64,000 bases of DNA from an uncultured Gemmatimonadales bacterium (GTDB lineage: Bacteria > Gemmatimonadota > Gemmatimonadetes > Gemmatimonadales > GWC2-71-9): assembly GCA_963798915.1 (NCBI GenBank), contig CAWCVB010000007.1, forward strand, positions 64,001 through 128,000, written 5' to 3'. Made by a program: the position numbers and the translations under genes. This document shows, piece by piece, positions 46,827-48,191 of this stretch. The notes under the pieces are model-generated. The model did no database searches. It saw nothing but the letters and a program-made list of their open reading frames with translations, and was not told the origin of the DNA. Within the stretch, counting starts at the first letter, position 1. Each line of letters opens with the position of its first letter.

Positions 46827-47000
46827 CCTTGTATCTCTAGATCTGACGTTTGCGGTAACTTCTGGATAGGGTGGTAACCCGTTGCGCCTAGGGGCCTCGA
46901 GCCCGTTCGTTAGCCTTGTATCTCTAGATCTGACGTTTGCGGTAACTTCTGGATAGGGTGGTAACCCGTTGCGCCTAGGGGCCTCGAGCCCGTTCGTTAG
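46827..47000 (+). repeat. 87-bp tandem duplication in the IS110 left end
   Basis: 46827-46913 identical to 46914-47000. Confidence 0.95.
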
Positions 47001-47095
47001 CCTGGGTGCCACCCGTCGTTGATCGTCGAGAGCCCGAACAGTTGCCGGGGGATCCACCCCGCATCACGCAAGGCCGGGCCACGCCGATCGTTCCC
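46930..47095 (+). ncRNA. putative bridge RNA
   Basis: Target loop 46956-47014 (guides GTTGCGCCTA / GTTCGTTAG); donor loop 47021-47089 (guides ACAGTTGC / GCAAG); RNA ends approximate. Confidence 0.82.
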
Positions 47096-47111
47096 CTGGA
47101 GGGAGGCGCCC

Positions 47112-48044
47112 ATGGACCACTTCATCGGCATTGATGTCGCCAAGGCGACGCTCGACATCGCCTCCCTCCCCGACGGGGAGAGCTGGAGCGTCACCAATGA
47201 CGAGCACGGCCTGGCCGAGCTTGCCCCACGCCTCATCGCCCTCGCCCCGAGCCTCATTGTCCTGGAGGCCACCGGGGGCTTTGAGTTCCTCGCCGCCATC
47301 ACCTTGGCGAAGGCCGGCCTGCCCGTGGCTGTCGTGAATCCCCGTCAGGTCCGCGATTTCGCCAAAGCCTTGGGGCGCCTCGCCAAGACCGATGCCCTCG
47401 ACGCGGCCATCCTCGCGGACTTTGCCCAGCGGATTCGCCCGGAGCCCCGCGCGCTGCCGGATGAAGCGGCGCAGCTGCTCGAAAGCCTACTGACACGCCG
47501 TCGGCAGATCGTCGAGATGCTGACCGCGGAGAAGAACCGGCTGGGCTTTGCCCGGGGCCCGGTCAAGCGCGATATCAGCCAGCACATTCGCTGGCTCGAG
47601 AAGCGGCTGGCCGACGTCAACGGCGACCTGCAGGAGGCCGTCGCGGCGAGTCCGCTGTATCGAGCCAAGGCCGAGCTCCTGACCAGCGTACCCGGCGTCG
47701 GGCAGGTCACGACGCTCACGCTCCTGGCCACCCTCCCTGAACTCGGTCAGCTCTCACGTCACCAGATCGCGGCGCTCGTCGGCGTGGCGCCCATGAATCG
47801 GGATAGCGGCACGATGCGCGGCAAACGGATGGTCTGGGGCGGCCGGGCACCCGTGCGGGCGGTGCTCTATATGGCGACCCTCGTTGGCATCAAGCACAAC
47901 CCCGTGCTCCGAGCCTTCTACGCGCGGCTCCGGGCCGCCGGGAAGCCCTTCAAGGTCGCCGCCACAGCCTGCATGCGAAAGCTGCTCACGATCCTCAACG
48001 CGATGCTCACGCACAACCGCCGGTGGAACGCAGAACACGCTTGA
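47112..48044 (+). CDS. IS110-family transposase (bridge recombinase)
   Basis: GIDVAK, LEATGG, KTDALDA (DEDD); DSG serine motif; GGAGG RBS; 310 aa. Confidence 0.96.
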
Positions 48045-48057
48045 CTTTCGAGACAGT

Positions 48058-48191
48058 TGCTAACGACCGGCGCTTCAGCGGCGGGGCGGTCACCCTCACA
48101 GCAACCAAAGTTCATTCTCGGCCAACCCGATGGCCGCAGCGCAGGGAATTCCGGCGGACGGCCGCCCGCCAGCTGCAAGCGCGGGTTAGCC
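48058..48191 (-). repeat. attC site abutting the IS110 right end
   Basis: CTAAC-GACCGGCGCTTCAGC ... GCTGCAAGCGCGG-GTTAGCC. Confidence 0.88.

Follow-up and report, generated by a model that had tools for sequence, protein, structure and literature searches.

The stretch of DNA analysed here (64,000 nucleotides, hereafter the window) comprises positions 64,001 to 128,000 of contig 7 of an uncultured Gemmatimonadales bacterium, represented by a metagenome-assembled genome (MAG) of 3.3 Mb in 17 contigs that is 85% complete. It holds an array of integron gene cassettes and, inserted at one attC site of that array, an intact insertion sequence (IS) of the IS110 group, which spans 46915–48059 on the plus strand (1145 bp). 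The element consists of a long left non-coding end, a transposase gene and a short right end, and its left end has the anatomy of a bridge RNA with one target-binding and one donor-binding loop (Table 1). We consider it very probable that this is a bridge element of the IS621/ISCro4 type whose guide is set to the R' core site of attC.

Table 1. Positions of the element, its parts and related features in the window.
Feature	Position	Strand	Basis or remark
Left flank: first bases of next cassette and core CT	46813..46829	+	Cassette gene on minus strand, beta-lactamase-fold, 46736-45564
Outer copy of duplicated left-end start (core CT, 5' stem-loop, 5' half of target-binding loop, hairpin, right target guide)	46828..46914	+	87-bp exact tandem repeat
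Left end encoding putative bridge RNA	46915..47111	+	197 nt; covariance model (59 left ends) scores 154.5 bits
Target-binding loop	46956..47014	+	Basal stem 46956-46967 / 47004-47014; inner hairpin 46979-46991
Left target guide GTTGCGCCT	46968..46976	+	Sense of left target and core; specifies GTTGCGC+CT
Right target guide TCGTTAG	46994..47000	+	Reverse complement of CT+AACGA; CGTTAG at 46995-47000
Donor-binding loop	47032..47079	+	Stem GCCCG 47032-47036 / CGGGC 47075-47079
Left donor guide ACAGTTGCC	47038..47046	+	ACAGTTGC at 47038-47045
Right donor guide GCAAG	47068..47072	+	Sequence
Transposase (bridge recombinase) gene, 310 aa	47112..48044	+	Pfam PF01548 and PF02371; PDB ISCro4, IS621
Right end, 15 nt, with left donor ACAGTTG at 48053-48059	48045..48059	+	Sequence
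Core CT and body of interrupted attC (CTAACG ... GGGTTAGCC)	48060..48191	+	One long hairpin, single-base bulges
Internally deleted copy abutting attC	13047..13610	+	3' 557 nt ~100% identity; few decayed left-end bases
Left-end stump of diverged relative (83%), whole target-binding loop	10916..11021	+	Covariance model, 42.2 bits
Left-end stump of another relative (78%)	56630..56721	+	Covariance model, 20.9 bits
Right-end stump (80%) abutting attC (CTAACGACAGGC...)	52904..52979	+	Sequence match
Integron integrase, C-terminal remnant	55578..55865	-	TIGR02249 positions 229-314, 125 bits (cut-off 265); 82-aa reading frame matches PF00589

The open reading frame (ORF) of the transposase matches DEDD_Tnp_IS110 (1.3e-24, 87.2 bits) and Transposase_20 (4.7e-19, 69 bits), and thus has the N-terminal DEDD/RuvC-like domain and the C-terminal domain with an SG motif by which the IS110 family is recognized. 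Residues 3–299 align with the solved recombinases of ISCro4 (9t56, 1.9e-42) and IS621 (8wt6, 1.2e-37), and the motifs GIDV, EAT, KTDA.DA and DSG line up with those of ISCro4. An initial annotation of this DNA had described an intact DEDD/Ser transposase here, which the two domains and the full-length match to both solved proteins bear out. The closest named annotation is that of the ISMno7-family IS110-like transposases of Methylobacterium nodulans plasmids, distant relatives that were compared by protein alone (51.5% identity over 97% of the protein).

The termini of the element were fixed from a full second copy on contig 2, which is 97% identical, together with 80 relatives. As in other IS110-group elements, the left non-coding end is far longer than the right (197 nt versus 15 nt), and the right-end GAG (48050–48052) mirrors a left-end CTC to give a 3-bp subterminal inverted repeat. 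A CT core stands at both junctions, in gccgcc-CT (46828–46829) and CT-aacg (48060–48061), where hyphens set off the core. There is no target-site duplication; one core dinucleotide is common to donor and target, and CT begins all 69 of the 69 right flanks. The start of the left end is doubled, since 46827–46913 and 46914–47000 form an exact 87-bp tandem repeat, which is followed by a third CCT. The element had initially been taken to begin at 46828; a CT does lie there, but it belongs to the outer copy of the duplicated start, whereas the fold described for the left end belongs to the inner copy.

For the analysis of the left end, 80 related loci with 56–100% protein identity were taken, from Gemmatimonadota, then from Nitrospirota, Chloroflexota, Cyanobacteriota and other phyla. 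They yielded an alignment of 59 distinct left ends, from which an RNAalifold consensus and a covariance model were built. The consensus comprises 27 pairs, 14 of which show compensatory changes. In the basal stem of the target-binding loop, GGGTGGTAACCC (46956–46967) stands opposite GGGTGCCACCC (47004–47014), and its columns (58–70 and 118–129) are rich in such changes, one pair being, for example, GC in 24 cases, CG in 23 and UA in 9. The stem of the donor-binding loop is conserved, and the hairpin pair 199/207 covaries. Two stem/internal-loop/hairpin units had been proposed for the left end from the window alone; each of their features was found at its place, with stems that covary across the 59 left ends. 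When the 3.3-Mb genome was searched with the covariance model, it matched two full left ends and two left-end stumps, and nothing else.

According to the available part of Durrant 2024, the left guides of a bridge RNA have the sense of the left flank and core, while the right guides are the reverse complement of core and right flank. In the element and its relatives, the sides of the two internal loops covary with the target and donor flanks, the core included, as expected of the IS110 group. The guide counts omit rows with an uncertain left-end start (L062, L078, L080, L086, L087) and rows in which no such start was found (L066, L073, L077, L081, L082, L093); the right-guide test used 71 rows with an aligned left end, 69 of them with a right flank. 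The right guide agrees with the first five flanking bases (R1–R5) at 5/5 positions in 53 of the 69 insertions, and at 4/5 or more in 63 of them, over 21 guide types. Agreement amounts to 4.67 of 5 positions, as against 1.82 with permuted guide types (0 of 10,000 shuffles as high), and falls to chance at R6–R8, so that pairing ends after R5. For the left target guide, the unbroken exact match up to the core has a mean length of 4.17 nt, as against 2.52 nt when permuted (66 rows; 0 of 5000 as high). The left donor guide varies jointly with the right-end terminus, which reads ACAGTCG, ACAGGTG, ACGGTTG or ACAATTG in relatives. Together, the target guides of the window copy read GC-CT-AACGA, the complement of TCGTTAGGC, which includes the attC R' core site GTTAGGC.

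These results bear on several claims of the initial annotation. The covariance model and the guide/target covariation test that it proposed gave covarying stems and a guide–target match that beats every permutation. Its right guide, CGTTAG as the reverse complement of CTAACG, is of the kind that predicts the right flank in most of the insertions, and the parts of its donor loop (stem GCCCG/CGGGC, left guide and GCAAG) were correctly placed, the left donor guide changing with the right-end terminus. The left target guide fared less evenly. It had been matched to attC flanks at 29225 and 50575, and GCGCCTAACG is indeed present at both, which are better left-guide matches; both sites, however, are unoccupied and have G at R5. 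At the flanks of the element itself the claimed match holds near the core but not beyond it: the contig-2 copy lies at GTATGCCGC-CT-AACGC, its left flank ending in GCCGC-CT, and the window copy at GTGTGCCGC-C-CT-AACGA. On the minus strand near 45458, the attC that belongs to the same cassette has an R''-side flank to which GTGTGCCGC is exactly complementary, and this pairing predicts GTGTGCCGC-CT. The additional C is probably secondary, and a homopolymer error in the assembly would be an equally simple cause.

The setting of the element is a cassette array of ~43 kb on the minus strand. CTAACG occurs 24 times on the plus strand of the window versus 5 times on the minus strand; each plus-strand site opens an imperfect palindrome of ~40–145 nt that ends in GTTAGRC-like bases, and the attC-like sites lie directly 3' of minus-strand ORFs. 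These cassette ORFs include a BrnT/BrnA pair, several alpha/beta hydrolases, a beta-lactamase-fold protein and an isochorismatase. The interrupted site to the right of the element folds as one bulged hairpin (-36.8 kcal/mol, z -2.96, 0 of 200 shuffles as good). In established attC anatomy the position of the single-base bulge marks the strand, and this position, together with the direction of the ORFs, points to the minus strand as the top strand of the cassettes. There, CGTTAG-GC contains the R' core site GTTRRRY, and the core CT of the element corresponds to the central AG of GTT-AG-GC, 2 nt from the integrase crossover. More precisely, then, the target is the R' core site at a cassette boundary, read on the strand opposite the cassette genes. 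The base after CTAAC is G in 24 of 28 plus-strand cases of the array versus 5 of 27 minus-strand (R'') cases; the guide position R4 can therefore distinguish the two ends of the palindrome.

The array bounds single cassettes with attC sites, as an integron does, and an intact intI beside it was not found. What is left of the integrase keeps only the C-terminal 82–106 codons, in the orientation of the cassettes, and scores below the model's cut-off because it is partial. The N-terminal part is not present, and a search of the 85%-complete genome gave no hit above the cut-off and hence no intact intI; the locus thus represents a cassette array whose integrase has decayed. The place expected for the N-terminal part is occupied by an isochorismatase-family ORF (55889–56593), with the 78% left-end stump just beyond it. 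The cassette adjoining the element is the BrnT toxin/BrnA antitoxin pair (48186–48709, minus strand); toxin-antitoxin cassettes are usual in chromosomal integrons. More CTAACG/GCCTAAC clusters lie on contigs 2 (~506–512 kb), 4 (~55–62 kb) and 13, which suggest further cassette arrays; the intact contig-2 copy lies inside the cluster on that contig.

Some features of the left flank and left end may be recorded alongside. A start of the element further to the left, to which a shared GTRTGCCGC left flank would point, was rejected, as this flank complements the R'' side of the cassette itself and the left flanks of relatives are unrelated. Between 46806 and 46827, the left flank has GAGCCCGTTCG in common with the hairpin of the target loop, and its GTGCCGCCC resembles the 3' stem strand GTGCCACCC of that loop; this likeness is either chance or the trace of an older insertion. 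In addition, GATCGTCGAGA is present twice as a direct repeat of 11 nt, in the left end (47021–47031) and in the transposase gene (47507–47517); the start of the truncated copy at 13060 lies 2 nt inside the latter of these.

The association with attC extends beyond the one insertion. Both intact copies, the truncated copy and the right-end stump abut attC hairpins in one orientation, and all copies in the window have the same orientation. IS1111-family elements that target attC reportedly leave decayed footprints in chromosomal arrays (Tetu and Holmes), as is seen here. A guide of the AAC type is found in 27 rows, all from Gemmatimonadota save one Deferrimicrobium MAG, and is kept down to ~60% protein identity; in a quick tree that leaves out rows L032, L053, L070 and L086, it is present in every Gemmatimonadota branch. 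Under a strict test (CTAAC paired with GTTNR in the minimum-energy fold, length at most 165 nt), an attC-like hairpin stands at 15 of the 27 AAC-type insertions; a relaxed test adds L014, L015, L027 and L031 and a separate fold adds the window copy, for a total of at least 20 of 27. The guide has also changed in step with the target. In the lineage L016–L019, nested among attC-type elements in the quick tree with 98% support, the right guide is now ACCCTAG and three of the four copies lie at CTAGGGT in non-attC DNA, while a 46-row clade of Nitrospira and other phyla has other targets and longer left matches (5–6 nt). Pairing with the left target is short in the AAC-type clade because this side is the variable start of the next cassette.

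Three single observations concern these relatives. L019 (1806–1990), of the retargeted lineage, has lost ~5 nt within its left target guide, with GTTTCTAGGGG instead of GTTCCGCCTAGGGG. L040 and L079, from two Gemmatimonadota lineages, have the guide TTGTTAG and are sited at CTAACAA; since an A after CTAAC is typical of the R'' end in the window array, these lineages may home to the opposite attC end. In L024 the right flank, CTAACGACTAACGCCTAACGC, contains CTAACG three times within 21 nt; it cannot be recognized as an attC.

Several observations weigh against a bridge element guided to attC. Among the AAC-type insertions, 6 of 27 (L023, L024, L036, L038, L040, L070) have no recognisable attC hairpin, and L030 is ambiguous. 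The left-guide match of the element's own flanks is confined to CGC+CT, only 3–5 of 7 positions agree, and in the window copy the match needs the one unexplained C beside the core. The folding energy of the left end is no better than that of shuffled sequences (z +0.60, +0.53), and so the case for the bridge RNA rests on covariation and not on stability. A gathering-threshold search of Rfam with the whole window gave 0 hits, which therefore places the RNA outside every curated family. A scan for sigma-70-like promoters over 46700–48200 in the integrated copy found 0 sites. Twenty sequencing runs hold part of the stretch, and the contigs of four runs contain no circle-junction or empty-site joints. 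One metatranscriptome run (X5) holds the element at ~100% identity as contigs only, which may derive from DNA and give no RNA ends. Finally, all the genomes are metagenome-assembled, and the duplication and the extra C are known from the assembly, not from raw reads.

The insertions outside clear attC hairpins would also suit an incidental association, in which the element follows a 9–11-nt string that happens to be common in the attC sites of this genome, independently of integron or hairpin. The retargeted relatives, which insert in non-attC DNA, agree with this, and base pairing alone accounts for the targeting of IS621 in the published account, as far as it was available. Such a view is, however, largely compatible with guidance to attC, given that homing by sequence only is still homing. 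Moreover, all 7 bp of the core site are covered by the guide, as is the base diagnostic of the R' end, and the AAC type has been kept over the protein divergence and phylogenetic range described above. We therefore regard a merely incidental association as very unlikely.

The duplicated left end raises the further question of whether the window copy is a fossil, immobilized by the duplication and the extra C, with a guide match that is a relic. The tandem duplication and the additional C at the left junction, the one truncated copy and three stumps in the array, and the absence of circle junctions noted above would all fit such a view. On the other hand, the transposase ORF is intact and identical to that of L014, and the inner left end is complete. 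An element of 100% identity, with a single left end, lies at other sites in another MAG (L014) and in a contig of a soil run (X1), which speaks for recent mobility; the 87-bp duplication is absent from both, and is therefore private to the window copy. Furthermore, L017 and L018 (two loci of one MAG; 1743–1862 in each) have left-end starts duplicated as 60-bp units, so that duplicated forms apparently still move or arise repeatedly. On balance a crippled copy is unlikely, and a bridge element that is guided to attC remains the preferred reading.

The form of the duplications suggests how they may have arisen. In the window, the crossover lies in the CT at 47002–47003, directly after the right target guide, and the internal site GTTAGC-CT-GGGTG offers GC+CT only, a match equal to the left match of many natural sites. 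In L017 and L018 the junction is the CT of the left-guide-coding DNA (GTTCCGC-CT), and the AGGGG that follows matches this lineage's own right guide at R1–R4; thus, its guide-coding DNA is a near-perfect copy of its own target. The duplication in the window would be best explained by action of the element's own recombinase on the internal GC-CT half-site, either through recombinase-mediated unequal exchange or through self-insertion and subsequent homologous deletion. Half-match recombination by IS621, reported in a 2026 preprint, and tandem non-coding repeat units beside IS110 transposase genes, reported in another 2026 preprint, fit this picture, as far as the available text of each goes, and are no proof of it.

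RNA production, circle formation and current activity are predicted from the sequence, and the following course of events would be consistent with it. The element would move as a circle, in which the junction of right and left ends, ACAGTTG-CT-TGTAT, is the donor. Across this predicted junction a right-end TTGACT lies, by eye, 17 nt from TATCTC, and such a junction-spanning promoter is expected for the IS110 family (Durrant 2024, available part). The donor loop would read the element's own ends. In the target loop, the 7 nt of the right guide, together with those left-guide bases that lie next to the core, would read GC-CT-AACGA, in which the G at R4 distinguishes the R' end from the near-palindromic R'' end. 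The element would thereby land 2 nt from the integrase crossover, in one orientation and antiparallel to the cassette genes.

A more elaborate scheme would combine these elements, and we think it quite unlikely as a whole. It envisages a two-layer rule for attC, in which a dominant 7-nt right guide and 2–4 left-guide bases would act first and the attC hairpin or its extruded bottom strand would then serve as a structural gate like that of ISPpu10. The element would have co-evolved over a long time with the integrons of Gemmatimonadota as their parasite, eroding both intI and arrays. The guide-coding DNA would act as a decoy target, from which duplicated left ends and isolated target-loop stumps would result; these stumps may still be a source of truncated guide RNAs acting in trans.

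If the element is guided as proposed, attC homing would have arisen in both branches of the RNA-guided IS110 family, with differently laid-out guide RNAs, which would mark attC sites as a favoured safe harbour. The relatives would also provide a natural series for the specificity rules of bridge recombinases, comprising the attC type, variants at R4–R5 and one lineage retargeted off attC; what it suggests is a right guide that is long, a left guide that is short, and one base that discriminates between the two ends of the target palindrome. To integron biology the element would add a second lineage of RNA-guided IS that invades and erodes chromosomal arrays, in a little-studied soil phylum.

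Among known systems, the element is closest to IS621 and ISCro4. The transposases are similar over their full length; in common, too, are a left end that is long and a right end that is short, the CT core, a bridge RNA whose two loops have a left and a right guide for target and donor alike, and a donor of 14 nt framed by a subterminal repeat of 3 bp. The IS621 architecture with a CT core that the initial annotation recognized is therefore well founded in the ends, the guide loops, the recombinase match and the covariation, as is its proposal of an RNA-guided IS110-subgroup element that homes to cassette boundaries, given the guide covariation and the attC context here and in relatives. The mechanism appears to be that of IS621, and the attC habit appears to be new for the IS110 subgroup. 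The differences lie in the target and its reading: IS621 naturally targets the repetitive extragenic palindromic (REP) elements of E. coli (ATCAGGCCTAC), and its right guide is of four bases in the available part of Durrant 2024, whereas the present element targets the attC R' core site with a right target guide of 7 nt, and left-target matches are short in its clade.

In its behaviour, and in this only, the element resembles the IS1111-attC group (ISKpn4, ISPst6, ISPa25), which are likewise RNA-guided DEDD elements at one attC end in fixed orientation (Siddiquee 2024, available part). The literature searched, as far as its text was available, attributes attC targeting only to IS1111-family elements, in agreement with the initial annotation, which knew such elements from the IS1111 subgroup with the RNA on the 3' side; ISfinder, most subscription journals and the supplementary target lists of Durrant 2024 and Siddiquee 2024 were outside its scope, and the predicted-target lists of the latter two may already contain such a case. 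That the element is itself a member of this group, with a seekRNA 3' of the transposase gene, is hardly conceivable, even though the target class and the broad ISfinder family are the same. In the available accounts, the IS1111 family has its guide RNA downstream of the gene, the two target matches in reverse order, and long subterminal inverted repeats. Here, by contrast, the right end has 15 nt, which differs from the long, guide-bearing right end of that family. It is the left end, of 197 nt, that contains the guides, with the bottom-strand match before the top-strand match, which is the IS110-type order. No subterminal inverted repeat of 7–17 bp is found among the 25 inverted-repeat pairs listed of 55 found, the longest one seen being 3 bp, and the best solved relatives are IS621 and ISCro4.

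Other comparisons are with elements that share the choice of target, or its form. The IS110 elements ISPpu9 and ISPpu10 of Pseudomonas putida, whose insertion sites are REP palindromes, likewise have repeated, hairpin-forming intergenic sequences as natural targets in the published accounts, as far as these were available; their target family is another one, and a structural gate has been shown for ISPpu10. Group IIC-attC introns are a further RNA-guided mobile lineage that homes to attC (PMC3001079, available part), but these are retroelements with an unrelated mechanism.

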